Counted from the first letter of the stretch, positions 22,430 to 59,571 are shown. The stretch is 64,000 nucleotides of DNA from an uncultured Actinomycetota bacterium (GCA_963740925.1 CAVUFZ010000003.1:337605-401604), one strand, 5' to 3'. The notes: generated by a model not told the origin, from the letters alone. Numbers and translations: made by a program.

Positions 22430-22436
22430 GCGGGCC

Positions 22437-34477: not shown

Positions 34478-34517
34478 CAGATTCTCTTTCCTGGTTGCGT
34501 TTGCGCTGAAGGAGGGC

Positions 34518-37314: not shown

Positions 37315-37380
37315 GAGAACGGAACTCCTTGGTCGAGAGGGGTTGGTCGAGCGGGGTCTTGTCGGAAGAAGTGAACCGGC

Positions 37381-39279: not shown

Positions 39280-39290
39280 CTCTGCCTCTC

Positions 39291-40163: not shown

Positions 40164-40173
40164 GGTCGCCTCC

Positions 40174-42083: not shown

Positions 42084-42165
42084 CGCTCTCCTTTGAATCG
42101 AGATCAGAATCGGGATCGAATAAAACGAGCTCGAAATGACGGATCTGAATCAGGCCCGTCGAACC

Positions 42166-42555
42166 TCACAGCTCACCGGTGAGGAACTGCGCGCGACCCA
42201 GGCCGAAGGACCAGTCATCCACTGTATTCGTACTGATCGAGACGACGAGATCCTGGGGTCGAAGTTCACACTGCGCTTCCAGCCGGAGGGCCAACTGCTC
42301 GTAGACCGCGACCTTCTGATCGCGTGACCGGCCCTGCTGAAAGATATGGATCACCGTGACCTCGCTGCTGCGGGTCAGGCCCAGGCCACTGTCGTCGGCG
42401 ATGATGTGGCCGACCGGATGCTCGGTGATGATCTGGTACCGGTCGTTCACCGGCGCCGCGAACACATCCACCATCACGTCTTGCACCACGTCCGCCAACC
42501 GTCGCAACTCGGCCGGTGACCGGCCCTGCTGAACATCGATCCGCACCAACGGCAC
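42166..42555 (-). CDS. tautomerase superfamily protein, malonate semialdehyde decarboxylase (MSAD)/IolK-like
   Basis: Pro-1 after Met removal; P.NDRYQ (Asp37), DSGLG..RS, QQGR (Gln73, Arg75) and DWSFG.GRAQFLTGEL. Confidence 0.82.
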   Translation of the reverse strand: MPLVRIDVQQGRSPAELRRLADVVQDVMVDVFAAPVNDRYQIITEHPVGHIIADDSGLGLTRSSEVTVIHIFQQGRSRDQKVAVYEQLALRLEAQCELRPQDLVVSISTNTVDDWSFGLGRAQFLTGEL

Positions 42556-42577
42556 AGCTGCCTCCCTCGACGACCCA

Positions 42578-42607
42578 ATTCTAGACTTTGTCAGGACATT
42601 AGATCAA
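42578..42607 (-). promoter_or_regulatory. iol operon promoter TTGATC-N18-TAGAAT with IolR-like box TGTCAGGACA in the spacer (42589-42598)
   Basis: Read directly upstream of the tautomerase start. Confidence 0.7.
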
Positions 42608-42679
42608 ACCAAGATCCTTCATGGTTCGGAGGCTGCGGCAGGCTCTCAGCGCTGGCGATCTGCCGCTCCGTCCGTTAGC

Positions 42680-43495
42680 TCAGCGCTGCAGCTCATGACT
42701 GAGCTCGGCGAGTTCGTCGCCGCCGGCCATCTGTCGGGTGAGTTCGTCCAGACCGACATCGGACCGCTTCTTGTCGAGCACCGCCTGGCCCAGCTTCAAG
42801 ATGATGAAGTGGTTGCCGACGAGATAGGCGTGGTGCGGGTTGTGGGTGATGAAGACCACGCCCAGGCCGGCGTCACGGGCCGCAGCGGTGTACTTCAGCA
42901 CCACCCCGGACTGCTTGACGCCGAGAGCAGCGGTGGGCTCGTCGAGGATCAACACCCTCGCTCCGAAATAGACCGCACGGGCGATGGCGACACATTGGCG
43001 CTGACCGCCGGACAGCTCGCCGATCGGCTGATCGATGTTCTTGACGACGATGCCCATCTTGCGCAGTTCTTCGTCCGCGATGCGCTTCATGTCCTTGGAC
43101 TTGAGTCCCGAGAGCGGGAACTTGCTGCCGGTCATTTCCGAGCCGAGGAAGAAGTTGCGCCACACCTCCATCAGTCCGACTACCGCCAGATCCTGGTACA
43201 CCGTGGCGATGCCGTGGGACAGCGCGTCCCGCGGGTTGCTGAAGGTCTGCGGCTTGCCGTCGATGAGCATCTCGCCCTCGTTGTGCGGATGCAAACCGGC
43301 CATGATCTTGATCAGGGTCGATTTGCCGGCCCCGTTGTCACCCAGGACGCAACTGACCTCACCCGCCTTGACGGTGAGATTGATGCCCTTCAGGGCTCGG
43401 ATGGCTCCGTAGCTCTTGCCCACGTTGCGCATCTGGATGAGCGACTCGCCATCGTGCAGTTCCGGGTCGGCGTGTTCGTGCAGCGTGTCAGTCAC
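42680..43495 (-). CDS. sugar (inositol) ABC transporter ATP-binding protein
   Basis: Walker A GDNGAGKST, LSGGQRQ and Walker B ILDEPT. Confidence 0.95.
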   Translation of the reverse strand: MTDTLHEHADPELHDGESLIQMRNVGKSYGAIRALKGINLTVKAGEVSCVLGDNGAGKSTLIKIMAGLHPHNEGEMLIDGKPQTFSNPRDALSHGIATVYQDLAVVGLMEVWRNFFLGSEMTGSKFPLSGLKSKDMKRIADEELRKMGIVVKNIDQPIGELSGGQRQCVAIARAVYFGARVLILDEPTAALGVKQSGVVLKYTAAARDAGLGVVFITHNPHHAYLVGNHFIILKLGQAVLDKKRSDVGLDELTRQMAGGDELAELSHELQR

Positions 43496-44563
43496 CTAAC
43501 CCACCTTTCTCGTCGTCGACAGTTTCTTCACGTAGAGGTTGACCAGCACGGCGAGCAGGAGCATGACGCCGAGGAAGGCCTTGAACCAGTTCGGGTCCCA
43601 GCCCGCGTAGACGATGCCGAGGTTGGTCATGCCGAAGATGAACGCCCCGATGGCGACACCCCAGGCGTTGCCGAACCCGCCCGTCATCAGCGTTCCGCCG
43701 ACCACAGCCGCGATGATGTAGAGGAATTCGTTCCCGACGCCGTTCCCGGCCTGCAGGGTGTTGAAGTTGTACAGGCTGTGCATGCCGATGAACCAGCCGA
43801 GGAACGACGTGGCCATGAAGAGCCCGATCTTCACCCGCCGGACGGGCACGCCCACGGCGCGGGCGCTGGCGGCATTGCCGCCGACGGCGTAGATCCAGTT
43901 GCCCATCCTGGTTCGCTGCAGGATGTAGCCGGACAACCCGACGAACACCAGCCACCAGATCACGGTCCCCCACACGGTGACGGGACCGACGTGGAAGCTG
44001 GAGGCGAAGATCGCGTGCAGGATGTTGTAACCGTCCATCTGGTTGATGTTGACGGTCGACACCGAGCCCGTGACCAACTTGGTCACACCGAGATTGGCTC
44101 CCTGCAGGACGAAGAAGGTGCCCAGGGTGATCAGGAAGCTCGGGATCCCTGTTCGCATCACGAGGTATCCGTTGACGAAACCGATGGCCAGGGCGAAGAC
44201 CAGGGAGAGAACGGCACCGACGATGAGGTTGATTCCCAGCTGGTAGCAGAACATCGCGTTCAGCAGACCGGCCGAGACGGGGACGACGCCGGCGGAGAGG
44301 TCGAATTCACCGCCGATCATCAGCATGCCGACCCCGACGGCCACGATGCCGATGGTCGAGGACTGATAGAGAACCGTGAAGAAGGAAGCGGGCGAACGGA
44401 AGGCCGGCGCGACGATCAGGAAGAAGATGAAGATCGCGATGGCCGCGACCAGTGCCCCGACCTCGGGGCGAGCAAGCAAACGGTTCGACAGACCAAGTGA
44501 CACCCGGTTCGATGATTCCGCCGGTGCCCCGGTGGGCGGTCGTGTCTGTACGGAATGACTCAT
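43496..44563 (-). CDS. sugar (inositol) ABC transporter permease (CUT2)
   Basis: GEFDLS, RTGIPSFLITLG, GNWIYAVGGN and AVVGGTLMTGG. Confidence 0.93.
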   Translation of the reverse strand: MSHSVQTRPPTGAPAESSNRVSLGLSNRLLARPEVGALVAAIAIFIFFLIVAPAFRSPASFFTVLYQSSTIGIVAVGVGMLMIGGEFDLSAGVVPVSAGLLNAMFCYQLGINLIVGAVLSLVFALAIGFVNGYLVMRTGIPSFLITLGTFFVLQGANLGVTKLVTGSVSTVNINQMDGYNILHAIFASSFHVGPVTVWGTVIWWLVFVGLSGYILQRTRMGNWIYAVGGNAASARAVGVPVRRVKIGLFMATSFLGWFIGMHSLYNFNTLQAGNGVGNEFLYIIAAVVGGTLMTGGFGNAWGVAIGAFIFGMTNLGIVYAGWDPNWFKAFLGVMLLLAVLVNLYVKKLSTTRKVG

Positions 44564-44635
44564 GAGTTGGCTCCGATTGACGAGGGTCGCACGGGCGGCC
44601 GGGACGCGATGGCCCCGGCCACCCGTTGCGGTGAC

Positions 44636-45631
44636 CTAGCGGGTGTTGTTCTTGGCGAACGGGAGGATGGTGTCGATGTTGGTGCTGTCGACGATGGACG
44701 GGCCGGTGAGCACGGGCTGACCGCCCCCGATGTCGTTGCCGTTCTTCTTGTACAGGTACAGCGAAGTGACGGCCATGAAACCCTGCACGTAAGGCTGCTG
44801 ATCGACCGAGAACTGGATCTGTCCGTCCTTGATCGCCTGCGCGGCGTCGACGTTCAGATCGAAGGTTGCCAGCTTGGCGCTGCTGCTCGACTGGCTGATG
44901 GCCTTGATCGCGTCGAGCGCGATCGGTGCCCCCAGCGTGACGATGTAGTCGATGGACTTGTCCTGGCTGAGCTTGGCCTGCAAGCTCGAGACCACCGAGG
45001 AGTCATCCGCCCCGTTGACCTGCAGGTTCTCGGTGTTCGAGAGGCCCTGCTTGACGCCGGCGCAGCGTGCTTCGAGCGCCACCGAACCGGAGGCCTGGAT
45101 GATGCACAGGCCGTGCTTGGCGCCTTCCGACGCCGCGCGCTTGCCGACGGTCTGCCCGGCGAGGGTCTCATCGGAGCCGAAGTACATCAGGGCTCCGACC
45201 GATTTGTACTCATCGATCCCGGAGTTGAACGCGACGACCGGGATGTTCGCCGACTTCGCGTTCTGGACCGCACCCTTGAGCGCGTCCGGCGTGGCCAGGG
45301 TGGTGGCGATGCCGTCGACCTTCGAGTCGACCGCGTTCTGGATCAGCGTGGACTGCTTGCTCGGGTCGGGGTCGTTGGAGTACTTCAGCGTGACGCCCTC
45401 GTTCTTGGCGGCCTGCTGGGCACCCGCCTTGATCTTGTCCCAGAAGGTGTCGCCGGGGGTCTCGTGGGTGACCATGGCAAAGGTGTAGCCGGAGCTGTCG
45501 CCGGCTCCCCCACTACCGCTGTTGTCGCTGGTGGAAGGAGCGGCGCCGCCGCCGCTGCACGCGGTGAGAGAAATGGCGGTTGCTGTGGCCAGGGCCAAGC
45601 CGGCCAGAAGCCGGGGACGTGGACGAATCAT
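44636..45631 (-). CDS. sugar (inositol) ABC transporter substrate-binding lipoprotein
   Basis: Lipobox SLTAC, VTHETPGDTFW and DQQPYVQG; RBS GAAAGG before ATG 45631. Confidence 0.92.
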   Translation of the reverse strand: MIRPRPRLLAGLALATATAISLTACSGGGAAPSTSDNSGSGGAGDSSGYTFAMVTHETPGDTFWDKIKAGAQQAAKNEGVTLKYSNDPDPSKQSTLIQNAVDSKVDGIATTLATPDALKGAVQNAKSANIPVVAFNSGIDEYKSVGALMYFGSDETLAGQTVGKRAASEGAKHGLCIIQASGSVALEARCAGVKQGLSNTENLQVNGADDSSVVSSLQAKLSQDKSIDYIVTLGAPIALDAIKAISQSSSSAKLATFDLNVDAAQAIKDGQIQFSVDQQPYVQGFMAVTSLYLYKKNGNDIGGGQPVLTGPSIVDSTNIDTILPFAKNNTR

Positions 45632-45879
45632 CGATGATCCTTTCGTGAGGTCGCAGGACCGCGACCGCGGGACAGGGGTGAATCCGCGAGAATGTGACCT
45701 CGCGGCCGCCACGAGCGGCCGGGGTCACGGGATCGCATGTCGGGGCCACCGAGCCGGTTGCCTTCGAGCGAACCGGCGGTCACCGACTGGCGCAGCACCG
45801 GAATCGCGATCCCGGTCAATGTCCCTGCACTCATCGATGAGCCCTCCACGTTGTCGTCGGCCGCGGTGCCGACGGGCTA

Positions 45880-45923
45880 ACTGTGATGGTGAGTTCACGC
45901 CGTGTCAAGTGTTTGTCTTAACA
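45880..45923 (-). promoter_or_regulatory. ABC operon promoter TTGACA-N17-CACAGT with IolR-like box TGTCTTAACA (45914-45923)
   Basis: -35 at 45903-45908; box lies 5 nt upstream of it, the same geometry as at 29326-29346. Confidence 0.65.
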
Positions 45924-46018
45924 TCTTGACCAATTCGTGTCTTGTCGGGGCGAACGGGTCACGCAACAATCGGACTCGGCCCGTCGGCGGCAGCAGTGAG
46001 CGAGCGTGAAGGAGCGAC

Positions 46019-47056
46019 ATGAGGATCGGGCTGGTCGGATACGGTACGGGCGGACGGCACTTCCACGCCCCGTTCATCGAGGCTGCTGACGATTGCGACC
46101 TGGTGGGCATCGTCACCCAGAACCCGGAGCGGGTGTCCCAGGCCGAAGCCGAATGGCCGTCCGTACCGGTCGTGAACTCCTTGCCCGAGCTCATCGACGC
46201 CGGTGTCGACGCGGTCGCCATCTCGACCCCGCCGGCCTCGCGCCGAGAGCTCGTGCTCGAGGCCGTGGGCCGGGGTGTGCACGTGGTGGCTGACAAGCCG
46301 TTCGCGCCGGACGCCGCTTCGGCGGTCGAATTGATCGACGCGGCCGAGGCAGCCGGCGTGGTGCTGAACGTGTTCCACAATCGGCGTTGGGACACCGACA
46401 TCCGCACCCTGGCGGCCGTTCTGGGCGAGGGCCTGGTGCTGACACCCTGGCGATTCGACTCACGATTCGACTTCGATGACCCAGCCACCCTCGAGATGGG
46501 CCCGAGTGGGGGCCTGCTGCGAGATATCGGCAGTCATCTGGTGGACCAGGCGCTCTGGCTCTTCGGCGCAGTCGATGACGTCTACGCCGATCTGGACTGG
46601 GTCGGGGAGAACGACCAGCGCACCGATGCGGGCTTTGCGCTGGTTCTGCACCATCGAGCCGGCGTCCACTCCCACCTGTCGGCCAGCAAGGTCAACGCAC
46701 TGATCTCCCGTGAACTCAGACTCCTCGGATCCGGGGGGAGCTACGTCTCGGACCAGACCGATGTCCAGGCCCAGGCGGTCTTCGCGGGCCTTCGGCCGTC
46801 TCAGGACCCGGCGGGCTGGGGGTATGAGGCTCGGCCACGGTGGGGATCGCTGACCGTTCCCGGCGCGGCACCCCTCGAGATCCCCTCCGAACAGGGGCGC
46901 TATCACGACTTCTACAGCCAGTTCGCCCGCGCTTGTGCTGGTTCGGCGGCAGAACCCGTGCCGGCCATCGAGGGACTGGCGGTGCTCGAGGTTCTTGACG
47001 CCGCACGGGCCAGCGCGGCGTCCGGTCAGGTCGTGGCCGTCGCCCACTCACGCTGA
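46019..47056 (+). CDS. Gfo/Idh/MocA oxidoreductase, IolW-like (scyllo-inositol dehydrogenase type)
   Basis: GLVGYGTGGRHFHAP, VADKPF, FHNRRWD and DIGSHLVDQ. Confidence 0.85.
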   Translation: MRIGLVGYGTGGRHFHAPFIEAADDCDLVGIVTQNPERVSQAEAEWPSVPVVNSLPELIDAGVDAVAISTPPASRRELVLEAVGRGVHVVADKPFAPDAASAVELIDAAEAAGVVLNVFHNRRWDTDIRTLAAVLGEGLVLTPWRFDSRFDFDDPATLEMGPSGGLLRDIGSHLVDQALWLFGAVDDVYADLDWVGENDQRTDAGFALVLHHRAGVHSHLSASKVNALISRELRLLGSGGSYVSDQTDVQAQAVFAGLRPSQDPAGWGYEARPRWGSLTVPGAAPLEIPSEQGRYHDFYSQFARACAGSAAEPVPAIEGLAVLEVLDAARASAASGQVVAVAHSR

Positions 47057-47071
47057 TCGCCAGCCCCCGTT

Positions 47072-47812
47072 TCAGGCGACCAGAGAGGCCTGGATGTGGT
47101 AGTCGGTGGCCCGGTAGATGTGCCGACCGGCCTCGACCACCCGGCCGGTGTCGTCATAGACCACCCGAGAGGCGGTCAGGCACGCGGCCGGGAGGGTCTC
47201 GGCCAGCAGTTCGGCTTCCGCCGGATCGAGCAGCCGGGCACCGACCTGCTGATGGGCGATGCGCAGATTGACCCCGAGTCTGCGCAGACATTCATAGAGC
47301 CCCCCCTGCTGCAACTCCTCGGCAGGAACCGCCCAACGGCTCGGCAGGTAGTTGGTCAGAATGGCCAATGGGTGCCCGTCGGCCGAGCGCAGTCGCCTGA
47401 TCCGGAGGACGCGTTCGTCCTCCGAGGCCAGCTCCTGGGGGGCGTTGCCGAGATCGACCCAGTGGTAGGCGAGCAGTTGCGTGCCCGGAGTCCGGCCGGC
47501 AGTGACCAGGTCGTCCTGCAGGCTGGTCAACCGCTCTTCGCGGCTGAAGCTCCGCGGCACCACCTGGGTACCGACACCCCGTTTGCGCACCAGCAGACCT
47601 TTACGGACCAGCTCCTGGATCGCCTGCCGCGCGGTCGGCCGTGACAGACCCAGCCGAGCGGTCAGCGACATTTCGTTCTCCAGCCGCTCTCCGGGCGCGA
47701 GCGTGCCGTCGGCAATCGCGCTCTCGATGGACTGCGCCAGTTGGTGGTAGAGCGGCACCGGCGAGCTGCGCTCGAGGGCGATCTCGAGCTGCCGGGCATC
47801 CGATCGCGACAT
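47072..47812 (-). CDS. iolR: GntR (HutC subfamily, UTRA domain) regulator, IolR-like
   Basis: SPVPLYHQL, LGLSRPTARQAI and LLVRKRGVGT followed by a UTRA domain; embedded in the iol cluster. Confidence 0.8.
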   Translation of the reverse strand: MSRSDARQLEIALERSSPVPLYHQLAQSIESAIADGTLAPGERLENEMSLTARLGLSRPTARQAIQELVRKGLLVRKRGVGTQVVPRSFSREERLTSLQDDLVTAGRTPGTQLLAYHWVDLGNAPQELASEDERVLRIRRLRSADGHPLAILTNYLPSRWAVPAEELQQGGLYECLRRLGVNLRIAHQQVGARLLDPAEAELLAETLPAACLTASRVVYDDTGRVVEAGRHIYRATDYHIQASLVA

Positions 47813-47838
47813 AGCCACAGTATGGCGCCGATGCTGCT

Positions 47839-47848
47839 TGTTCGTACA
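47839..47848. promoter_or_regulatory. IolR-like box TGTTCGTACA between gntR and usp
   Basis: TGT-N4-ACA box in an AT-rich divergent intergenic region. Confidence 0.5.
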
Positions 47849-47894
47849 TAATGACAAGACTTGTTTGTCCAACCGTCTTGATCGGAGTTCGCAG

Positions 47895-48332: not shown

Positions 48333-49352
48333 GTGCCTGAGCGGGGAGGCCGAGGGGTCTCCGGTCGGGTCACGCTCGAGCAGGTGGCGCGGCACGCCGG
48401 GGTGTCCCGGGCCCTGGTCTCGATCGTGATGCGGGACGCCCCCGGGGCCAGTACGTCCACCCGTGACCGGGTGCGGGCGGCCGCGGCCGAACTGGGTTAT
48501 CGACCGGACGTGCGGGCCCGCGCGCTGGCCGGGCAGAGCTCACGCCTGATCGGGGTGATGTTCGGCGTCGGCGCCGGAACCTTCCACTTCGACCTGCTGG
48601 AAGGTCTCTACCAGGCCGCCGAGGCCCGTGATCTGAACCTGCTGTTGACCGCGGTCACGCCGCGGCGAAACGAACAGAAAGCGGCAGAATCCCTACAGGG
48701 CTTCAGTTTCGACGGGTTGATCATGCTCGGGCCGCCCACCGGGCAGCCGCTGCTGGCGGGGCGGGTGCCGGTCGTCGTCGTCGGCTGGCAGGTCGACGAT
48801 CCGGCGGTCGACGTGGTCAGAACCTCCGACACCGAGGGGATGTCGGCCGCACTGGCGCACCTGGTCGAGCTGGGACATCGCCGGATCGCCCATCTGGACG
48901 GGGGCTCGAGCGTGATCGCAAAGGCGCGTCGCGAGGCCTACGTCCAGCAGATGCAGGTCGCCGGGTTGGGGGCGAACGTAAGAGTCGTACCGGGTGGGCA
49001 GAGCCAGCTTGACGGCCAGCACGCCGCCCACACACTGCTCGGCGAACCCGACCGGCCCACGGCGCTGATCTGCTACAACGACGACACGGCCGCGGCCGCG
49101 ATCAGCGTCTTCGCCCAGCAGGGCCTACGGGTTCCCGTCGACATCTCGGTGCTCGGCTGGGACGACAACGAGGCCGCGGCCCTGGCTCCGGTGCGACTGA
49201 CCAGCGTGGCCCAGCACCCGCACGAACTGGCCCGGCTGGCGGTGGCGCGGATCGCGGCCCGGAGGCAGCACGATCTCGTCGAGCCGCGCGACGTCGTGCT
49301 GTCACCGGAGCTGCGAGTTCGCGACAGCACGTCGGCGCCGCCACCGGCCTGA
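48333..49352 (+). CDS. LacI family transcriptional regulator (start uncertain)
   Basis: VTLEQVARHAGVSRALVS, LGYRPD..AR.L, ICYNDDTA, VPVDISVLGWDD and LTSV. Confidence 0.93.
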   Translation: MPERGGRGVSGRVTLEQVARHAGVSRALVSIVMRDAPGASTSTRDRVRAAAAELGYRPDVRARALAGQSSRLIGVMFGVGAGTFHFDLLEGLYQAAEARDLNLLLTAVTPRRNEQKAAESLQGFSFDGLIMLGPPTGQPLLAGRVPVVVVGWQVDDPAVDVVRTSDTEGMSAALAHLVELGHRRIAHLDGGSSVIAKARREAYVQQMQVAGLGANVRVVPGGQSQLDGQHAAHTLLGEPDRPTALICYNDDTAAAAISVFAQQGLRVPVDISVLGWDDNEAAALAPVRLTSVAQHPHELARLAVARIAARRQHDLVEPRDVVLSPELRVRDSTSAPPPA

Positions 49353-49403: not shown

Positions 49404-49445
49404 CTCGTCACAGATCAAGCACCACTCGTCACAGATCAAGCACCA
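49404..49445. repeat. perfect 21-bp tandem duplication of the P450 gene 3' end
   Basis: ctcgtcacagatcaagcacca at 49404-49424 and 49425-49445. Confidence 0.9.
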
Positions 49446-51663
49446 ATTGTGGCGTCCTGGCCCGGGACACACAGATCATCATGCAGGTGCCGGCGGACTG
49501 CTCCTGCGGATCGAGCACCGAGTCGCGGTGATCGGCGACCCCCTCGACGATTCTCACCTCGCAGGTGCCGCAGGTGCCCTCGGCGCAGGACGACAACACC
49601 CCGACACCCGCTTCCTCCACGACGGAGAGGATCGAGCGCTCGGGCGGCACGGTCAGGGTGAGACCGCTCCGACGCAGCTTCACGGTGAACGCGTCCGAAC
49701 GCGCAGGCTCCGCGAGGGGTTTGGCCGCGAACCGCTCGACGTGGAGTGCGCCGCGGGGCCAGGGACCGACCCGTTGTTCGACAGCGGCCAGCAGCGGCTC
49801 GGGACCACAGCAGTAGACCAGGGTGTCCGCCCGCGGTGTCGACAGCAACGAGTCCAGATCGAGCAGGCCCGATTCGTCCTGCGGTCGTACCGACACCCGG
49901 TCGCCGTAACCGGCCAGCTCGTCGAGGAACGCCATCGACGCTCGCTGTCGACCGCCGTAGACCAACTGCCACTCTCGCCCACCGGCTTCGGCCGCTCTGA
50001 TCATGGCCAGGATGGGGGTGATACCGATACCGCCGGCGATGAACAGGTAGCGCGGAGAGTCGATCAGCCGGAAGTGGTTGCGAGGCCCGCGAACGCCGAC
50101 GGTGTCTCCGATCTCGAGCCGGTCGTGGACGAAAAGTGACCCGCCGCTGCCGAGCGGGTCACGCAACACCCCGATTCGCCAGCGCTCCCCGTCGGCGGGA
50201 TCTCCGCACAACGAGTACTGCCGGGTCGGGGCGTCGGGCAGCACCAGGTCGATGTGGGCGCCCGCTGACCACGGCGGTAGCACCTGGCCGTCGGCGGCGC
50301 GCAGGGTCAGCGCGACCACCCCGTCGGCGAGGACCTCCTTGGCCTCGACGATCGCCCCGGCCTCGAACTCCTCGGTCCGGCCGGTCAGGTCCGCACCGAG
50401 CTGCTCGCCACGGTCGACCGCAGCGGCCGTCTGCGCGTCCTCCGGGGCTGCGTCGAACCGCACCGGCAGAGCCGACCAGACGTACATGTTGGGCGTCGTC
50501 TTGTAGCGCACGGCCGAGCCGTCGATGCGGTAGTCCCCCAGGACCGGCAGCGCCTCCTCCAGAGCGACCTTCACCTCCAGCCGAGCCAGCGGTGCGCCGA
50601 GACAGCCGTGCATCCCCTCGGAGAATCCGAGGTGCCGGGTGACCCCGCGACGGATGTCGAACCGGGTCGGGTCGGCAAAGCGACGCTCGTCGCGGTTGGC
50701 CGCCCCGTAGACGAGGACGACACGGCCGCCGGCCGGAATCGTCACCCCGTGGATCGTCACCTCCCGGGAGGTGGTCCGCCCGGCGAGCTGGAGCGGGGTG
50801 GCGACGCGGATCGCCTCCTCCACCGCGGCCGGGATGAGGGCGGGATCCTCGTGCAGCAGGGCTCGCTGATCGGGATTCTCGGCCAACAGTTTCAGCACCG
50901 TCGCGGTCAATCCGGCCGTGCTCTCCACCCCGCCGAGAAACAACACCATCATCAGACCGAGGATCTCCGAGGCGGGCTCGAGGTGTTCCTCGGCGAACGG
51001 GACACCGCCGATCTCGGCGTTGACCAGATGGGTGACCAGATCGGGACGCGGGTGGCGGCGGCGCTCGGCCAGCAGGTCGATGAAGTAGCGCTGGATGCCT
51101 TCGGTCGCCGCCTTGGCGACGGGGGTCAGACGTGCGTCGTCGGGCCGGCGGTCCTTGAGCTCGTGGATCCACCGTTCGAGTTGCTCTCGGCCCTGCTCGC
51201 GGGCGCTGGGTAGCCCGAGCACGTTGAAGAACACCTCGTTGGGCATCGGCCAGGCGAGTTCGCTCGCCACGTCCACCGTGCCGCGAGTACGCCAGGGATC
51301 GATGAGCCCGCGGACCACCGCACGGATGCTCTCCTCCTGCTGGGCGATCCGGCGCGGCAGGAACCACGGCTGGACCACGGCCCGAACCTGGTCGTGGCGC
51401 GGGTTGTCCAGGTCGGGCAGGAATCCCGGACCGCTCTGGTCCTTGGCCGTGTCGTCGATGTCGATGCCCTGATAGCTGAGGAAAAGGCTCGGATCGAGCG
51501 CGGCCGCCCGGACGTCATCGAATCTCGACAGCGCCCACCAGTTCCATTTCTGACTGTAGAAGACCGGCGACTCGTCACGCATCCACTGGTAGACGGGGAA
51601 CGGATCGGCCTGGAACTCGGCGCTGAACGGGTCGTATTCCATCGCCGTGGGCGTTGTGGTCAT
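49429..51663 (-). CDS. self-sufficient cytochrome P450 fused to a phthalate-dioxygenase-type reductase (FMN/NAD(P)H/2Fe-2S)
   Basis: 744 aa single ORF: I-helix GGVEST, EEAIR, heme FSEGMHGCLG (Cys at 50602-50604), then RQYSLC, IAGGIGITP, YCCGP and CAEGTCGTC...ICVSR. Confidence 0.95.
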   Translation of the reverse strand: MTTTPTAMEYDPFSAEFQADPFPVYQWMRDESPVFYSQKWNWWALSRFDDVRAAALDPSLFLSYQGIDIDDTAKDQSGPGFLPDLDNPRHDQVRAVVQPWFLPRRIAQQEESIRAVVRGLIDPWRTRGTVDVASELAWPMPNEVFFNVLGLPSAREQGREQLERWIHELKDRRPDDARLTPVAKAATEGIQRYFIDLLAERRRHPRPDLVTHLVNAEIGGVPFAEEHLEPASEILGLMMVLFLGGVESTAGLTATVLKLLAENPDQRALLHEDPALIPAAVEEAIRVATPLQLAGRTTSREVTIHGVTIPAGGRVVLVYGAANRDERRFADPTRFDIRRGVTRHLGFSEGMHGCLGAPLARLEVKVALEEALPVLGDYRIDGSAVRYKTTPNMYVWSALPVRFDAAPEDAQTAAAVDRGEQLGADLTGRTEEFEAGAIVEAKEVLADGVVALTLRAADGQVLPPWSAGAHIDLVLPDAPTRQYSLCGDPADGERWRIGVLRDPLGSGGSLFVHDRLEIGDTVGVRGPRNHFRLIDSPRYLFIAGGIGITPILAMIRAAEAGGREWQLVYGGRQRASMAFLDELAGYGDRVSVRPQDESGLLDLDSLLSTPRADTLVYCCGPEPLLAAVEQRVGPWPRGALHVERFAAKPLAEPARSDAFTVKLRRSGLTLTVPPERSILSVVEEAGVGVLSSCAEGTCGTCEVRIVEGVADHRDSVLDPQEQSAGTCMMICVSRARTPQLVLDL

Positions 51664-51757
51664 CGGTGATCCTTCTCTCCAGCTCGGTGCGAGTGCTGCG
51701 CCCGGCCCCACCTGGTCCGGACGAAGTTTCCAGGACGCGTGCAGGACGACCTTCGCC

Positions 51758-51809
51758 TTGACACCCGCCGCGCAATGTTCATACCCTGACATCTCCTAGA
51801 GCGCTCTAG
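51758..51809. promoter_or_regulatory. promoter TTGACA-N18-TACCCT (+) and perfect LacI-type palindrome CTAGAGCGCTCTAG (51796-51809)
   Basis: 14-bp perfect palindrome with central CG between the divergent P450 and isomerase genes. Confidence 0.75.
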
Positions 51810-51870: not shown

Positions 51871-52872
51871 ATGAAGTTCGGTGTCTACAACGCGATTCTG
51901 CACGACCGGAGCCTGCCCGAGGCGCTGAGCGTGATCGGCGGGCTCGGCCTGAGTGGGATCGAGCTCAACTCCGGCGGCTTCCTGCCGGCCACCCACATCC
52001 CGACCTTCGACGACATCCTCACCTCCGACGACGCGCGGGACGACTTCCTCGGCCAGTTCGAGGGCACCGGGGTCGAGATCGCCGGGCTCAACTGCAACGG
52101 CAACCCGCTGCACCCCGACCCCACGATCGGCGATGCGCACGCCGAGGACGTCCGGCGCAGCATCCGGCTGGCCCATCGGCTGGGCCAGACCCGGGTGGTC
52201 ACGATGTCCGGGCTGCCGGCTGGTGAGCCGGACGCGACCCGGCCCAACTGGATCGTCAACGCCTGGAACTCCAGCGCGCTCGACGTACTGGACTATCAGT
52301 GGAGCGTGGCCGAGACCTTCTGGCGCGAGATCGACCGGGAAGCGGCCGACCTGGGCGTCAAGGTCGCCCTGGAGCTGCACCCGCAGAACCTGGTGTTCAA
52401 CCCGGCCGGCATCCGTGAGCTGGTGGAACGGACCGACGCCACCCATATCGGCGTCGAACTGGACGCCTCGCACCTGTTCTGGCAGTGGATGGATCCGGTC
52501 GCCGTGGTCCAGGATCTCGGCCCGCTGGTTTTCCACGCCGCCGCCAAGGACGTCAGGATCAACCCGGCGGCGGCGGTGTACGGCGTGCTCGACAACCGGT
52601 TCCGGAAGCTGTCACCGGAGGAGAAGCGGACCAACCTCGGCGGGGACGAGTGGGCCAACGAGTGGCCGGCGAACGCCGCCTGGGACTTCGTCGCCCTCGG
52701 TCGCGGTCATGACGCCGTCTACTGGTCGACCTGGCTGGCCGCGCTGGCTGCCGTCGACCCCGAGATGGCCGTCAACATCGAGCACGAGGACACCTCACTC
52801 GGCGCGGTGGAGGGCCTGGAGATGGCCGCCGGCGTGCTGCTGGACGCGGCCCGACGGGCCGGCCTGGCCTGA
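51871..52872 (+). CDS. TIM-barrel sugar phosphate isomerase/epimerase (resembles C. glutamicum Cg3390)
   Basis: MKFGVYNAILHDR, LNCNGNPLHP, VVTMSGLP, LELHP, ELDASHLFWQ, HAAAKD and NIEHED. Confidence 0.85.
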   Translation: MKFGVYNAILHDRSLPEALSVIGGLGLSGIELNSGGFLPATHIPTFDDILTSDDARDDFLGQFEGTGVEIAGLNCNGNPLHPDPTIGDAHAEDVRRSIRLAHRLGQTRVVTMSGLPAGEPDATRPNWIVNAWNSSALDVLDYQWSVAETFWREIDREAADLGVKVALELHPQNLVFNPAGIRELVERTDATHIGVELDASHLFWQWMDPVAVVQDLGPLVFHAAAKDVRINPAAAVYGVLDNRFRKLSPEEKRTNLGGDEWANEWPANAAWDFVALGRGHDAVYWSTWLAALAAVDPEMAVNIEHEDTSLGAVEGLEMAAGVLLDAARRAGLA

Positions 52873-52900: not shown

Positions 52901-54121
52901 TCAGCCGAGCGGGACCCATCGGCGCTCGGCCGCCGAGGTCGCCATCGCGTCGACCACCCGGGCCACGCTCAGTGCGTCCTCGATCGTCGCACCGGAGACG
53001 ATGCCGGTGCTGATCGAGGTCAGCAGCCGGCGGGCCTCGATCACCTTCAGGTCGTCATAGCTCATCGAGGTCGCCGAACCCGGCTGGAAGACCCGGTACT
53101 CGCCGTCGCCGGGCCGGGCCAGCCGGGTCTGGGTGAACGCGTCGGTGTAGCCCTGATCGAGGCAGACCTGCAACTCCCCCATCCGGCGGAAATCCCAGGC
53201 CAGCGAGCCGCGGTCGCCGTGCACCTCGATGCCGTAGCGGTTCTGGTCGCCGACGGAGACCCGGCTCGATTCGAGCGTCCCGCGGGCCCCGCCGGCCAGC
53301 CGCAGCAGCGCCGAGACGTGATCCTCGTTCTCCACCGGGCCGGGTTCACCGGTGCCGACCGCGCCGTGACCGGTGCTGGCCGCGGCGAGCCGGCGCCGTT
53401 GCGGGATGAAGATCGCGGTGTCGGCGACCACCTCCTCGACCTCGCCGACGACGTAGCGGGCCAGGTCGACGCCGTGGCTGACCAGGTCGCCCAGCACCCC
53501 AGAGCCCGCCCACTGGTTCTCATACCGCCAGGTCAGGGCGCCGTCGGGATCGGCGGCGTAGTCGGAGCAGAAGGTGATCCGGACCGTCTCGATCCGGCCG
53601 AGCCGCCCGTCGGCCACCAGCCCGCGGGCCGCCTCGACCGCCGGCGCGTTGCGGTAGTTGAAGCCGGCGGCGCTCTGCACCCCGGCCTCGGCCACCGCGG
53701 CCGCGATCTCCGCGGTCTCCCCGCTGTTGCGTCCGGCCGGCTTCTCGATCCACAGGTGTTTGCCGGCCCGGGCCACGGCCACGCCGACGTCGCGGTGGAC
53801 GAAGTTCGGCCCGGTCACGCTGACCAGGTCGATGTCGTCCCGGTCGACCAGCTCACGCCAGTCGGTGTGCACGTCGGCGAAGCCGTAGGCCTCGACCGCA
53901 GCCCGCAGTCGTTCGTCGGTGGCGTTGTCGGCCACGGCCACGAACTCGATCGGTGCGTTGTCCGGGTAGTACTGCCGGACCCTGCTGTAGGCCCGGGAAT
54001 GCACTTGGCCCATCCAGCCGAAGCCGACGACGCCGACCCGGATCGGACGGATCCGCTCGGCCGCAGCAGGATCGACAGCAGGATCGACAGCAGCAGGATC
54101 GACGGCGGGGTCGACAGTCAT
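52901..54121 (-). CDS. Gfo/Idh/MocA oxidoreductase
   Basis: GVVGFGWMGQVH, IEKP, GFNYR and GVLGDLVSHGVD; N-terminal VDPA repeats. Confidence 0.9.
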   Translation of the reverse strand: MTVDPAVDPAAVDPAVDPAAAERIRPIRVGVVGFGWMGQVHSRAYSRVRQYYPDNAPIEFVAVADNATDERLRAAVEAYGFADVHTDWRELVDRDDIDLVSVTGPNFVHRDVGVAVARAGKHLWIEKPAGRNSGETAEIAAAVAEAGVQSAAGFNYRNAPAVEAARGLVADGRLGRIETVRITFCSDYAADPDGALTWRYENQWAGSGVLGDLVSHGVDLARYVVGEVEEVVADTAIFIPQRRRLAAASTGHGAVGTGEPGPVENEDHVSALLRLAGGARGTLESSRVSVGDQNRYGIEVHGDRGSLAWDFRRMGELQVCLDQGYTDAFTQTRLARPGDGEYRVFQPGSATSMSYDDLKVIEARRLLTSISTGIVSGATIEDALSVARVVDAMATSAAERRWVPLG

Positions 54122-54164
54122 GATCAGGATCTCCGAAACGTCGTGCGGGTTGAGAAGCGGCTGC

Positions 54165-55181
54165 TCAGCCGCGGCTGCGCAGCTCGTCCAGCCGGACCGG
54201 ACGGTGCTCGCGCCAGGACAAGGTGGCGGCCTCGGCGACCCAGCTGGCCTCCAGCCCGTCGACCACCGTGCACGGGGTCGGCCGCTCGCCCGCGACCACC
54301 TCGCAGAAGGCGGCCATCTCGGCAGCGAAGGCGGTGGCCAACCGGTCCATGAAGAAGGTGTGGGCCGGACCGGGCGGGAATTCGGTGGCCGGATCGGCCG
54401 AGCGCATCGGCAGCCCGGCGTCCAGGCCGGCGGCGATCGAGCCGTCCGAGCCGTGCAACTCCAACCGGACGTCGTAGCCCTCGGCGTTGTAGCGGGTGTT
54501 GGAGACCACGCCGATGGCCCCGTCGTCGAAGGTCAGCAGGGTGGAGGCCGTGTCGGCGTCGCCGAGCTCGGTGAACCACTTCTCACCGCGGTTCGAGCCG
54601 ACCGCATAGACCTCGACCACCTCGCGGCCCGACGCCCAGCGGACGGCGTCGAAGTCGTGGATGGCGCAGTCGTGGAAGATGCCGCCGGAGCGGGCGATGT
54701 AGGCCGCGGGCGGCGGCGCCGGATCCATGGTGGTGGAGCGGATGGTGGACAACCAGCCGAGCTCACCGCCGTCCAGGGCGGCCTTGGCGGCGACGAACGC
54801 CGGGTCGAAGCGCCGCGGGAAACCGATCTGGACGCTGACCTGGGAGTCGGCGACGAAACCGGCCAGATCCGCGGTGGCGTAGGGATCCCCGGAGACCGGC
54901 TTCTCACAGAAGGTGGTGATGCCGGCGCCGACGCTGGCCCGCAGCAACTCCAGGTGGGAGTCGGTGGAGGAGGCGATCAGGACGCCGTCCACCCCGGCGG
55001 CCAGCAGCGCCTCCGGGGAATCGGCGACGCTGACCGAGGTGCCGCTGAGCCGTCCGGCCGCCTGCTCGGCGACGCCGGGCACGACGTCGGCCAGCACCAG
55101 CTCGTCCACCCGCTCCAGACCGCTGAGCGTGGTGGCGTGGTACGCCCCGATCCGACCCAGCCCGATGATGCCGATCCGCAT
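54165..55181 (-). CDS. Gfo/Idh/MocA inositol dehydrogenase-like oxidoreductase
   Basis: GIIGLGRIG, FCEKP, QIGFPRRFD and SGGIFHDCAIHDFD. Confidence 0.9.
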   Translation of the reverse strand: MRIGIIGLGRIGAYHATTLSGLERVDELVLADVVPGVAEQAAGRLSGTSVSVADSPEALLAAGVDGVLIASSTDSHLELLRASVGAGITTFCEKPVSGDPYATADLAGFVADSQVSVQIGFPRRFDPAFVAAKAALDGGELGWLSTIRSTTMDPAPPPAAYIARSGGIFHDCAIHDFDAVRWASGREVVEVYAVGSNRGEKWFTELGDADTASTLLTFDDGAIGVVSNTRYNAEGYDVRLELHGSDGSIAAGLDAGLPMRSADPATEFPPGPAHTFFMDRLATAFAAEMAAFCEVVAGERPTPCTVVDGLEASWVAEAATLSWREHRPVRLDELRSRG

Positions 55182-55263
55182 TGACCCACTCCCCGTTCGT
55201 CGACCCGGCCGTGGAGACTCTCCGGCGGCCCAGCGCCCGCTCGTGCGGACGCTCACCTCATGT

Positions 55264-55273
55264 TGTCAGGACA
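55264..55273. promoter_or_regulatory. IolR-like box TGTCAGGACA upstream of the dehydrogenase at 55181
   Basis: Identical 10-mer to the box at 42589-42598. Confidence 0.6.
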
Positions 55274-55305
55274 AACCCGGACCTGCCAAGCGCACTCGCC
55301 GGTGC

Positions 55306-56085
55306 TCAGTCGTGCGCACCGGGGACGTTCTGGTCCCAGTCGATCACCGATCCGGTCACCACGCCGCTGTCGGGTGAGAGCAGCAGGACGGCCAACCGGG
55401 CCACCTCGTCCGGTTCGATCAGCTGCCCCATCGGCAACCGGTCGGCCGCCTGATCGGCCCAGCCGTCCTCGGCCTGGTGGAACCGGCGCTGGATCTCGTC
55501 CTCGCCCTCGGTCCGGGTCCAGCCGAGGTTGATCCCGTTCACCCGGATCTTGTCCCAGCGGTGAGCATGGGCGACGTTCTTGGTCAACCCGATCAGCCCG
55601 GCCTTGGTCGCGGCGTAGGCGGCCAGATAGGGCTGACCGCCGAGCGCGCTCATGGTGATCACGTTGACGATCGACCCGGCCGCCTCACGACGGAGCAGAT
55701 CGGCCACCACCGCCTGCATCAGGAAGAACGGACCGCGCAGGTTGACCGCGACGTGGTCGTCGAACAACTCCGGCGTGGTCTCCAGCAGCGTGCCCCGAGT
55801 CGTCAGCCCGGCCGCGTTCACCAGGCCGTCCACCCGGCCGAACCGCCGCACCAGCTCGGCCACCACCGTGCGTCCGGACTCGACGTCACCGGCGTCGCCG
55901 GCCAGATAGACGGCCTCGGCGGAGCCTGCCGCACGCAGTTCTTCGACCGCGGCCTCACCCCGCTCGGCACGTCGGCCGGTGACGGCCACGGTGGCCCCGG
56001 CACGGGCGGCGGCCCGGCCGATGGCCAGACCGACACCCTGGGTGCCGCCGCTGATCAGGATCACCTTGTCGTTCAGGTCAGCCAT
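55306..56085 (-). CDS. short-chain dehydrogenase/reductase
   Basis: ISGGTQGVG, LVNAAG and catalytic YAATK. Confidence 0.93.
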   Translation of the reverse strand: MADLNDKVILISGGTQGVGLAIGRAAARAGATVAVTGRRAERGEAAVEELRAAGSAEAVYLAGDAGDVESGRTVVAELVRRFGRVDGLVNAAGLTTRGTLLETTPELFDDHVAVNLRGPFFLMQAVVADLLRREAAGSIVNVITMSALGGQPYLAAYAATKAGLIGLTKNVAHAHRWDKIRVNGINLGWTRTEGEDEIQRRFHQAEDGWADQAADRLPMGQLIEPDEVARLAVLLLSPDSGVVTGSVIDWDQNVPGAHD

Positions 56086-56093
56086 CGGGCGGG

Positions 56094-57311
56094 TCAGATC
56101 TCGTCGGTACGGTGCCGGACGCCGTAGCCGTCCAGATCGGCCTGCAGCTGGTCGGCGCTGGCCTCAGCGGCCAGCGACTGCTCCAGCAGGGCCGCCTGGG
56201 ACAGCGGAGTCAGGCCGTCCACGTTGTGGTCCAGATCGAGGTTGGTGGGGAACGGGTACCCCTCGGCGGCGCAGGCGATCGCGTTGTGCAGCAGGGAATC
56301 CGCGACCCCGGCCGCCCGGCGGGACTGCAGCGCCGGATAGATCGCACGGCTGATCTTGGCCCGGTCGACGCTCTCCATCGCCCGGCCGAAGGCGGAGGAA
56401 ACCTGCAGCAGGTTGGCCATCCGCTGCACGTCGGTGGAGACGTTGTTGCCGGCCCCGTGGAACAGCGCGGGGTTGAAGAAGGCGGCGTCGCCCTTGGCCA
56501 AGGGCAGCTGGACGTAGTGGTGGTTGAAGTAGTCCCGGAATTCGGGCCGCCGCCAGGCCAGGTAGCCCGGGCCGTAGGTGTGGGAGTAGGGCAGATACAT
56601 CGTCGGGCCGCTCTCCACCGGCATGTCGGAGTGCGCGACCGCCCCCTGCAGGGTGAGGACGGGCGAGAGCAGATGGACGTGCGCCGGGTAGCTCGCCGCG
56701 ACCTCGTTGGAGAGGAAGCCGAGATGGTAGTCGCGGTGCGGATCCTGGGCCTTGCCGCCGGGCCGGACCTGGTTGACCTGGGACGTCAGCTGAAAACCGG
56801 GGCCGAGCCAGGCGGTGCTGATCAGCGCCAGCAGTTCGTTGCCGTAGTAGTCGACGAATGTCTCGGGATCACGGACGGCCAGCTTCTCCAGCGCGTTCCA
56901 GACCCGGTCGTTGGCCCCGGCCTTGGCGAAGTGGTCGTTGCCACCGCCCCCGTGCTCTGCGGCCGCGGCCTTCTCGTCGGCGATGATCGCGTCGAAGGCG
57001 GCGGTGGCCCGGTCGACGACCGACGTGTCGGCGAAGGCGCCCTTCAGGGCGACGATGCCGGGCCCTTCGGTCAGCGCACGGACGAGCTCGGCCTCGACGG
57101 CCTGACGCCCTTGGACCGAAGCGAGCTCGCGGCGCAGCCGGGCGCTGTCGTAGACCAGCACGTTCTGGACGACGTCGGCGGCGAACGGGTAGTCCGTCAC
57201 CTCGGTGCGTCGATCGAGGGAGGCGACGAACTCATCCAGCCGGCAGTCGTCTTCGGTGAAACGGCCGGGGATGGTGGTGGCCGCGGACGGGGTGGGTGCG
57301 GTAGTGGTCAT
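56094..57311 (-). CDS. phytanoyl-CoA dioxygenase (PhyH) family Fe(II)/2-oxoglutarate-type dioxygenase
   Basis: Facial triad PHRDYH...FHGAG; TAGGCT -10 lies 7 nt before the ATG. Confidence 0.85.
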   Translation of the reverse strand: MTTTAPTPSAATTIPGRFTEDDCRLDEFVASLDRRTEVTDYPFAADVVQNVLVYDSARLRRELASVQGRQAVEAELVRALTEGPGIVALKGAFADTSVVDRATAAFDAIIADEKAAAAEHGGGGNDHFAKAGANDRVWNALEKLAVRDPETFVDYYGNELLALISTAWLGPGFQLTSQVNQVRPGGKAQDPHRDYHLGFLSNEVAASYPAHVHLLSPVLTLQGAVAHSDMPVESGPTMYLPYSHTYGPGYLAWRRPEFRDYFNHHYVQLPLAKGDAAFFNPALFHGAGNNVSTDVQRMANLLQVSSAFGRAMESVDRAKISRAIYPALQSRRAAGVADSLLHNAIACAAEGYPFPTNLDLDHNVDGLTPLSQAALLEQSLAAEASADQLQADLDGYGVRHRTDEI

Positions 57312-57433
57312 GTCCGAAAGCCTAGAGAATCCGGCCCGGGCGATACGATGCGAAAACCATCAAAAAGACCTCAGGCGGTCCGCTCCCGGTTCCAGGTCCG
57401 GGTCGACCGAAACGCTTGGACAAGGGGCGAACC

Positions 57434-59564: not shown

Positions 59565-59571
59565 CGACGCC

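Follow-up and report, generated by a model that had tools for sequence, protein, structure and literature searches.

The stretch of DNA analysed here, referred to as the window, comprises 64,000 nucleotides from an uncultured Actinomycetota bacterium (GCA_963740925.1 CAVUFZ010000003.1:337605-401604). Its minus strand carries a gene encoding a cytochrome P450 (P450) joined to a complete reductase of the phthalate-dioxygenase-reductase (PFOR) type, with all catalytic motifs intact. The gene is flanked by a convergent LacI-family regulator gene on one side and by a divergent TIM-barrel gene on the other, and a myo-inositol catabolic (iol) cluster lies 7 kb away (Table 1). The open frame extends over 49429..51792 on the minus strand (787 amino acids, aa), and the start was placed at the ATG at position 51663, which gives a protein of 744 aa. 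This choice was made because the Shine–Dalgarno sequence GGAGAGAAGGA precedes this codon, because homologues begin at the same MxxxPxAMEYDPF segment, and because the regulatory palindrome described below was taken to fall within the longer frame (palindrome at 51796..51809, frame at 49429..51792). The G+C content at third codon positions of the gene is 0.85.

Along the fusion protein, the Pfam domains follow one another in the order p450, NAD_binding_1 and Fer2. Specifically, the heme half keeps the cysteine ligand, the EXXR motif and the acid-alcohol pair of the I-helix, and the reductase half consists of a domain for flavin mononucleotide (FMN) and NAD(P)H followed by a plant-type [2Fe-2S] domain, whose four cluster cysteines are invariant across 36 homologues. 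An AlphaFold2 model of the fusion (mean predicted local distance difference test, pLDDT, of 76) shows two folded halves separated by a disordered stretch of about 24 aa, with low confidence in the B-C loop and in the Fe-S domain. When the model was used for Foldseek searches, the top matches were the intact crystal structures of CYP116B46 (6kbh and 6laa), and intact CYP116B46 is also the best match of the full-length sequence (442 bits), most of the score coming from the reductase. All together, these features describe a predicted, catalytically self-sufficient P450 monooxygenase of class VII-type architecture. A preliminary description of this DNA had reported a 744-aa reading frame joining a P450 to a complete FMN/NAD/2Fe-2S reductase, which is borne out by the reading frame, the Pfam domains, the motifs and the fold search. 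The motifs and the N-terminal sequence quoted there are exact on translation, its linker of about 30 aa comes close to the 24-aa disordered stretch, and its class VII architecture agrees with the best full-length matches, by both sequence and fold, being intact CYP116B structures.

Table 1. Features of the P450–PFOR gene and of its surroundings, in coordinates of the window.
Feature	Position	Strand	Basis
Complete P450–PFOR fusion gene, 744 aa (stop codon 49429-49431)	49429..51663	-	Translation, Pfam, full-length match to CYP116B46 structures 6kbh/6laa
P450 heme domain, residues 1-406	50446..51663	-	CYP130 as best solved relative; motif coordinates via translation
I-helix GGVEST, residues 244-249	50917-50934	-	Translation
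EXXR motif EEAIR, residues 282-286	50806-50820	-	Translation
Heme loop FSEGMHGCLG, residues 347-356, Cys354	50596-50625	-	Translation
Interdomain linker, residues 407-430, PEDAQTAAAVDRGEQLGADLTGRT	50374..50445	-	pLDDT <50, AlphaFold2 model
FMN-/NAD(P)H-binding PFOR part, residues 431-655	49699..50373	-	Pfam NAD_binding_1
FMN motif RQYSL, residues 481-485	50209-50223	-	Translation
NAD motif GGIGITP, residues 544-550	50014-50034	-	Translation
Plant-type [2Fe-2S] ferredoxin domain, residues 656-744	49432..49698	-	Pfam Fer2
Cluster cysteines C693, C698, C701, C731 (CAEGTCGTC...C, 693-731)	motif 49561-49587	-	Translation
Shine–Dalgarno sequence GGAGAGAAGGA, 6 nt before ATG 51663	51670..51680	-	Direct reading of sequence
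Perfect 14-bp palindrome CTAGAGCGCTCTAG, putative LacI-family operator	51796..51809	.	P450/TIM-barrel divergent promoter region
LacI-family regulator, convergent with P450, likely repressor	48333..49352	+	Pfam LacI and Peripla_BP_3
Xylose-isomerase-like TIM-barrel protein, divergent from P450, sharing the operator region	51871..52872	+	Pfam AP_endonuc_2, weak IolE-like match
Levoglucosan-dehydrogenase-like Gfo/Idh/MocA	52901-54121	-	Pfam, NCBIfam; 288 bits
IolG-like dehydrogenase	54165-55256	-	308 bits to TIGR04380
Short-chain dehydrogenase/reductase (SDR)	55306-56085	-	Pfam, NCBIfam
PhyH-family dioxygenase, 405 aa	56094-57311	-	Pfam; no NCBIfam match
Second LacI gene, divergent from the 52901..57311 operon	57416-58447	+	Pfam, NCBIfam
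Myo-inositol catabolic region, with iolA, TIM barrel, iolG, iolE, iolD, iolB, Cgl0159-type aldolase and iolC at 33.0-42.1 kb	32972..47872 (whole region)	.	Pfam, NCBIfam
CUT2 ABC transporter	42680-45712		Pfam, NCBIfam
Gfo/Idh/MocA gene	46019-47056		Pfam, NCBIfam
GntR regulator	47072-47872		Pfam, NCBIfam

In the literature, class VII self-sufficient P450–PFOR enzymes are treated as synonymous with CYP116B (PMC12126322, PMC11889516). Our search of PubMed Central (PMC, about 8 million papers) and bioRxiv found the term class VII applied only to CYP116B, with no non-CYP116 PFOR fusion specifically described. The protein of the window shares with the CYP116B enzymes (P450 RhF, CYP116B46) the order of heme domain, linker, FMN/NAD(P)H domain and [2Fe-2S] domain, and its reductase part is closer to that of CYP116B46 (281 bits, 46% identity) than to the stand-alone phthalate dioxygenase reductase 2pia (218 bits). 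The heme domain, in contrast, has a different affiliation. It was compared with solved P450s, taking the 60 best of 176 relatives, and through an exhaustive search of 1.84 billion representative proteins. Among the solved P450s the first rank is held by CYP130 of Mycobacterium tuberculosis (Rv1256c, 2uuq), with 203 bits and 36% identity (133/373 aligned residues), whereas the heme domain of CYP116B46 ranks about 59th, with 159 bits and 31% identity (120/383 aligned residues). CYP130 is also similar in its N-terminal region, but it is a stand-alone P450 without a fused reductase, and the two have no common genomic context.

Membership of a CYP family is set at 40% identity or more and that of a subfamily at 55% or more. 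By these thresholds the heme domain falls outside the CYP130 family as well as outside the CYP116 family and the CYP116B subfamily; moreover, the AAHETT and FGYGSHQCMG motifs of CYP116B46 are replaced by GGVEST and FSEGMHGCLG. Its identity is below 40% to every solved P450, and no entry was recognised as CYP236A among the 60 best of the 176 solved relatives. Among the 1.84 billion representatives, the protein's own family stands at 53-79% heme-domain identity and is followed by an abrupt drop to 45% or less. The nearest representatives outside the family are 40-45% identical (P0207 at 45% and P0254 at 44%, both without CYP names), and below the drop identities are mostly 36-42%, to ordinary stand-alone P450s of about 395 aa. 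One long match, P0212, was rejected as a PFOR fusion, since it consists of two tandem P450 domains. In conclusion, the heme domain is, as judged from these identities, a discrete clade that belongs neither to CYP116 nor to CYP130, in line with the preliminary description, which had set it apart from CYP116B. Bacterial CYP family numbers now run beyond CYP2700 (PMC12416667); as the family is abundant in public genomes, what the preliminary description regarded as possibly a new CYP family may already have a number.

As far as this abundance is concerned, grouping at 90% identity gives at least 120 clusters that share 68-78% identity with the fusion protein over its full length, and one family cluster alone comprises 642 member sequences. 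They derive from soil metagenomes, from genomes of Geodermatophilus, Modestobacter, Blastococcus, Marmoricola, Pseudonocardia and Streptosporangiaceae, and from metagenome-assembled genomes (MAGs) of Chloroflexia. Their source annotations read 'cytochrome P450' or 'ferredoxin' only, and the search of PMC and bioRxiv returned no characterised member of this P450–PFOR family. The GGVEST signature is found in 111 of 120 homologues, which also give the heme-loop consensus F(G/S)EGxHGC(L/I)G. In addition, the B-C loop, corresponding to substrate recognition site 1 (SRS1), is invariant, acidic and very polar throughout the family, with the sequence GIDIDDTAKDQSGPGFLPD.DNPRHDQ (GIDIDDTAKDQSGPGF). Such a loop is compatible with a polyol ligand, without constituting proof of one. 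A much longer family member of 1158 aa, P0007, is 48% identical in the best local alignment (99% query coverage, 1254 bits); its excess length may correspond to an extra domain, a duplicated segment or a gene-call artefact.

Several relatives encode the heme part and the reductase part in different frames. Specifically, Modestobacter marinus (locus L022) encodes a 412-aa P450 whose TGA stop codon overlaps the ATG of a 341-aa PFOR gene (CGATGAGC), and the same two-gene layout is found in Geodermatophilus ruber (L021), a Blastococcus MAG (L028), a Frankiales MAG (L023) and Chloroflexia (L027, L030 and L031). Geodermatophilus siccatus (L002) and Geodermatophilus sp. TF02-6 (L005), on the other hand, carry the fused form, and fused and split versions are 77-79% identical in sister genera. 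The linker of these two fused proteins, ...HVETVQHRTTSVTVV.SEFEADVRVE..., recurs in the relatives as the N-terminal segment of their separate reductase, as the alignment of the G. siccatus linker with the split reductase N-terminus shows (HVETVQHRTT.VT..EFEADVRVE), and the consensus linker of the fused family is this same segment. Four loci (L024, L029, L034 and L035) were left unclassified as fused or split, their internal frame shifts resembling errors of long-read MAGs, and open reading frames of at least 1,000 aa in L015, L018 and L033 were rejected as evidence for extra domains, being upstream read-through artefacts of high G+C content.

In a neighbour-joining tree of the heme domains the split Chloroflexia forms are basal. 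Bootstrapping (200 replicates) recovered the family in 100% of the replicates, the actinobacterial clade in 89%, the Geodermatophilaceae clade containing both forms in 99.5% and, inside it, the fused Geodermatophilus subclade in 94%; in no replicate were the split forms monophyletic. The distribution of the two forms indicates that conversion between a two-gene and a one-gene arrangement occurred inside the family, and probably more than once. The comparison indicates that the enzyme arose from a two-gene operon, with the P450 followed by the PFOR gene through an ATGA-type stop/start overlap, and that loss of the stop or frame boundary produced the fusion. An origin separate from the CYP116B fusion event appears well supported, because close relatives and the basal Chloroflexia keep P450 and PFOR as separate overlapping or adjacent genes; the split operon surviving in these relatives thus distinguishes the family from CYP116B. 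The preliminary description had already suggested an independent fusion, for which the split relatives (M. marinus, G. ruber, Blastococcus and Chloroflexia) now provide a more direct argument.

Two further arrangements came to light in this search. In Acrocarpospora pleiomorpha (L036:9932-12152) a stand-alone P450 of CYP116-like sequence, which among solved structures is closest to CYP116B heme domains (about 200 bits), is followed by a separate PFOR gene with 53% identity to the reductase domain of the window; by its sequence, this pair looks like the unfused counterpart of the CYP116B arrangement. The 727-aa protein P0258 is another P450–PFOR fusion outside CYP116B, with a CYP125-like heme domain (237 bits) and full-length matches of 330-338 bits to 6laa/6kbh. 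Judging from these sequences, PFOR-type reductases evidently associate with different P450s, and PFOR fusions seem to have arisen in several P450 families.

The surroundings of the gene were surveyed in 36 loci of homologues, 33 of them informative, in which canonical iol genes as well as Gfo/Idh/MocA and TIM-barrel neighbours were counted within 10 kb. A LacI-family gene accompanies nearly every homologue, and it is adjacent to the P450 in about 28 of 36 loci by tblastn and in 22 of 33 by stricter clustering of open reading frames. In the window, the palindrome CTAGAGCGCTCTAG is located in the 207 bp that separate the P450 from the divergent TIM-barrel gene at 51871, and it is the sole site in the 64 kb when up to three mismatches are allowed. 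The identical 14-mer occurs 70-169 nt upstream of the P450 genes in four Chloroflexia loci, where it also precedes transporter, PanB-like and dehydrogenase genes, and as paired sites upstream of dehydrogenase–isomerase–P450 operons in actinobacterial MAGs (L004, L015, L016, L026 and L029). By chance, about 1.6e-4 occurrences of a perfect 14-mer would be expected per 22-kb locus. Other groups have related CG-centred palindromes, TTGAAGCGCTTCAA and TAGATCGATCTA; in a Streptosporangiaceae-like group, TTGGAACGATC(T/C)A is found immediately downstream of a CTTGACA...GGGATTCT promoter and again at the LacI gene. A scan for sigma-70 promoters gave no match in the P450 region, as expected for a high-GC actinobacterium, and an Rfam scan of the window gave none either; a search of sequencing runs returned no RNA data. 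In conclusion, the putative operator is conserved across Actinomycetota and Chloroflexota, and we infer that the P450 gene is a direct target of a dedicated LacI-type repressor acting through CTAGAGCGCTCTAG.

Turning to the pathway genes, the inositol region announced by the preliminary description is real: the complete iol cluster at 33.0-42.1 kb and the CUT2 transporter lie to one side of the P450, the operon at 52901..57311 lies to the other, and further Gfo/Idh/MocA and TIM-barrel genes are found in both directions. The CUT2 binding protein (44636-45712) matches the CUT2 binding protein 4RU1 with 342 bits, a structure that is presumably a myo-inositol complex. Between iolB and iolC, where the class II aldolase IolJ would be expected, a Cgl0159-like gene is found (40174-41259, minus strand; PF22649, 412 bits), which is probably the actinobacterial aldolase of the inositol pathway; its call overlaps both neighbours, which places the true start further in. 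The G+C content of the window is 64-75%; it is lower (0.63-0.70) across positions 26000-52000 than in the flanks (0.70-0.75), and this stretch, in which the P450, the ABC transporter, the iol cluster and two sugar transporters of the major facilitator superfamily are located, may have been acquired horizontally as a catabolic island.

Of the 33 informative loci, 13 contain Gfo/Idh/MocA together with TIM-barrel genes, and 17 contain CUT2 ABC transporters. At least four gene orders were observed. In L016 and L026, an IolG-like gene overlaps by 4 nt a gene for a Hyi-like TIM barrel, which is followed after 15-54 nt by the P450. In Modestobacter (L020 and L022), genes for an ABC binding protein, a permease and an ATPase precede P450 and PFOR, and in G. 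ruber (L021) and Blastococcus (L028) the P450 lies between an inositol-type transporter and iolA/iolG/iolE/iolD. In the Chloroflexia locus L031, P450, PFOR and a second P450 stand beside PanB-like, IolG-like and TIM-barrel genes. Since these different orders are spread over two phyla, they speak for functional coupling and not for inherited synteny. In addition, homologues of the TIM-barrel protein at 51871 (51-71% identity) are encoded near the P450 in eight loci, immediately upstream in L023, L024 and L028, and loci of Geodermatophilus, Modestobacter and Marmoricola contain parts of the 52901..57311 module close to the P450.

The Chloroflexia loci L027, L030, L031, L034 and L035 all contain CTAGAGCGCTCTAG, several of these long-read MAGs having frameshifts. 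In four of them (L030, L031, L034 and L035) a single separate PFOR gene has two P450 paralogues in its vicinity, which share 57-60% and 69-75% identity with the P450 of the window. A PanB-like gene (ketopantoate hydroxymethyltransferase, PF02548) adjoins the P450/PFOR pair in four Chloroflexia loci; enzymes of the PanB type act on a one-carbon unit, which would suit a reaction releasing formaldehyde.

Not all loci are equally informative. In 13 of 33, nearly 40%, only LacI and the P450 are present and no pathway clue is given. These loci would suit a broad oxidase of xenobiotic or aromatic compounds like CYP116B, acting by dealkylation or hydroxylation, with sugar-type neighbours that are coincidental or regulatory only. 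The CYP116B-like architecture and reductase would agree with such an activity, as would the nearest structural neighbours, which act on hydrophobic substrates; we know of no sugar substrate of CYP130. Nevertheless, genes for aromatic-ring cleavage, terpenes or lipids do not recur in any of the 36 loci, nor does any gene class other than LacI and the sugar-type genes across the 33 informative ones. A LacI-family protein is in every case the dedicated regulator, sugar-type genes share an operon with the P450 in several arrangements that are independent of one another, and SRS1 is invariant, strongly acidic and polar. A xenobiotic oxidase is thus an improbable explanation. No aromatic or terpene context was encountered; the preliminary description had named homologues that act on aromatics or terpenes, mainly outside cyclitol clusters, as a finding that would speak against it.

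The operon at 52901..57311 bears on a different alternative. In Geodermatophilus, Modestobacter, Marmoricola and one MAG, the vicinity of the P450 again contains a module of PhyH dioxygenase, reductase (either SDR or aldo-keto reductase) and LacI, through which a modified cyclitol or amino-cyclitol may undergo a second oxygenation. The PhyH dioxygenase and SDR pair resembles the KanJ/KanK enzymes of aminoglycoside tailoring and, together with glycosyltransferase genes at 58.5 kb, could be taken to indicate that the P450 is a tailoring enzyme in the biosynthesis of a cyclitol-containing natural product, such as an aminocyclitol. This is very improbable: sugar-aminotransferase, cyclase and other core biosynthetic genes are absent, the neighbours are importers, catabolic dehydrogenases and repressors, and the family occurs in hundreds of soil genomes in varied contexts. 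As for the region at 58493-62560, it contains a GT2 glycosyltransferase gene followed by two opposed LytR-CpsA-Psr genes (59572-61134, minus strand, and 61058-62560, plus strand, the calls overlapping by about 77 bp); these are genes of cell-wall glycopolymer attachment, unrelated to the P450. Elsewhere in the window, adjacent cofD (2-phospho-L-lactate transferase) and cofE (F420 gamma-glutamyl ligase) genes for coenzyme F420 biosynthesis were found at 21443-23402 on the plus strand.

These observations can be combined into the following model. NAD(P)H would reduce the FMN, from which single electrons would pass via the C-terminal [2Fe-2S] cluster to the heme, where O2 would be activated; this path is proposed because of the domain order and the solved CYP116B46 structure. 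The LacI-family regulator would repress the P450 gene through the CG-centred palindrome until a sugar-like effector relieves repression, and the substrate would be imported by the inositol-type transporter. The P450 would then deblock a small cyclitol or a sugar derivative by taking off a modification, and the IolG-like dehydrogenase together with a keto-isomerase-type (ene-diol-type) TIM barrel would feed the product into the iol pathway. We judge it probable, from gene context, that the substrate is of cyclitol or sugar type. The composite explanation, which brings together a self-sufficient P450, its split-operon origin, LacI control and the deblocking of a cyclitol or sugar, is put forward tentatively, as one that falls a little short of being probable.

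Our best guess for the reaction, and the simplest chemistry compatible with the context, is that a methyl-inositol of plant origin (pinitol, quebrachitol, ononitol or sequoyitol) undergoes oxidative O-demethylation: the methyl group would be hydroxylated and the hemiacetal would collapse to free inositol and formaldehyde. Pinitol, for example, would yield D-chiro-inositol and formaldehyde, followed by oxidation and isomerisation to scyllo-inosose. That methyl-inositols specifically are the substrate is, however, rather unlikely in our estimate. Several results weigh against the cyclitol pathway in general or demethylation in particular. Canonical iolD, iolB or iolC genes lie within 10 kb in only two loci, the operator 14-mer (up to three mismatches) does not precede the iol genes of the window, and the Hyi-like TIM gene found with the P450 in other loci is missing from the window; the 13 loci containing only LacI and P450 count here as well. 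The co-operonic TIM protein of L016 and L026 resembles hydroxypyruvate and oxo-tetronate isomerases (Hyi/OtnI-like), no formaldehyde-detoxification gene is adjacent in the actinobacterial loci, and the structure model and Foldseek gave no substrate clue, the B-C loop being of low confidence and the other Foldseek neighbours being generic bacterial P450s active on lipids, steroids and macrolides. Finally, Erwinia consumes pinitol via iol genes without a demethylase (PMC9788770), so that demethylation is not obligatory. In favour of demethylation, P450-type demethylases have been implicated in pinitol use in a fungus (PMC9788770). The cyclitol link drawn in the preliminary description stands in part: it agrees with the LacI gene and operator that go with almost all homologues, with the Gfo/TIM genes in 13 and with the CUT2 transporters in 17 of 33, but not with the scarcity of canonical iol genes or the loci reduced to LacI and P450. 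Of the reductase and iol neighbours whose retention it had proposed to check, the reductase is kept, fused or as an adjacent gene, and iol-type co-location is kept only in part of the family (L021, L028, L016, L026 and L029).

The lack of adjacent formaldehyde-handling genes in the actinobacterial loci would suit a formaldehyde-free reaction, namely that the P450 hydroxylates a deoxy- or otherwise modified cyclitol (quercitols, viburnitol, carbasugars or anhydro-polyols) and thereby restores a missing hydroxyl for the iol enzymes, the enzyme, regulation and pathway logic being the same. C-H hydroxylation is the default P450 reaction, and the context of LacI, IolG-like dehydrogenase, TIM isomerases and CUT2 transporter fits equally. 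We know, however, of no precedent for catabolic P450 hydroxylation of deoxy-inositols, and the PanB-like gene of the four Chloroflexia loci hints at a one-carbon unit. The documented role of P450s in sugar catabolism is, moreover, O-demethylation, as performed by CYP236A (PMC6292453), and we consider this alternative, too, to have a small probability.

CYP236A, from Zobellia and Formosa, demethylates 6-O-methyl-D-galactose with release of formaldehyde (PMC6292453, PMC10033563). It resembles the O-demethylation proposed here in its role, as a P450 of a carbohydrate catabolic cluster stripping a methyl ether and so opening the way for ordinary sugar enzymes, an analogy that is functional and hypothetical only; unlike the fused enzyme, it uses a separate ferredoxin and ferredoxin reductase, and it belongs to polysaccharide-utilisation loci of marine Bacteroidota. 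The same precedent allows the substrate to be seen as a methylated or modified monosaccharide or glycoside (e.g. 3-O- or 6-O-methyl hexoses) rather than a cyclitol, with demethylation or oxidation as in marine CYP236A. LacI, CUT2, Gfo/Idh/MocA (one of them levoglucosan-dehydrogenase-like) and ketose-epimerase/isomerase-type TIM barrels are equally typical of sugar pathways. On the other hand, those neighbours that can be assigned specifically point to inositol: IolG is the nearest match of the co-operonic dehydrogenase family, the binding protein of the transporter is 4RU1-like, and the window, L021 and L028 have canonical iol genes beside the P450. No glycoside hydrolases were seen near the P450. 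An enzyme for methyl sugars is therefore likewise improbable.

Returning to the methyl-inositol demethylase, two inositol systems offer a comparison. In the catabolism of rhizopine (3-O-methyl-scyllo-inosamine), oxidative O-demethylation by MocDEF has been proposed beside Gfo/Idh/MocA and TIM-barrel (MocA/MocC-like) genes. MocDEF, however, is of a completely different type, combining a non-heme oxygenase with a reductase and a Rieske ferredoxin, and it is unrelated in sequence, since Pfam recognises here only P450, NAD-binding and Fer2 domains. In B. subtilis, D-chiro-inositol is reportedly converted by the IolG/IolI route through keto-chiro-inositol to scyllo-inosose (Yoshida et al. 2006). 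The dehydrogenase and TIM-barrel isomerase pair that is co-operonic with the P450 in L016 and L026 follows the logic of this route. Its Hyi/OtnI-like TIM protein has no detectable match to the B. subtilis inosose isomerase IolI, so that orthology was rejected, and its gene is absent from the window.

In conclusion, the clearest new results are the natural fused/split polymorphism and the LacI operator conserved across phyla. In contrast to CYP116B, which is linked to aromatic acids (PMC8449657, PMC11889516), the family has a context of LacI and sugar-type genes. For the class VII enzymes, which are used in biocatalysis, it represents a second, abundant and phylogenetically separate family, P0258 being at least one further example. 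The sister-genus pairs of fused and split forms offer a rare natural test of the effect of fusion on the coupling and rate of electron transfer, and the LacI/operator pair could act as a biosensor for the inducer. It is possible, though unlikely, that the family is a bacterial O-demethylase of plant methyl-inositols, which would make it the first cyclitol P450 and, among P450s of class VII type, the first whose native substrate is carbohydrate-like; the search of PMC and bioRxiv returned no characterised bacterial demethylase of pinitol or methyl-inositols. Methyl-inositols are major plant and soil carbon compounds. If the demethylase reading is true, a gap in cyclitol catabolism would be closed, and pinitol could be converted to D-chiro-inositol by a one-protein route.

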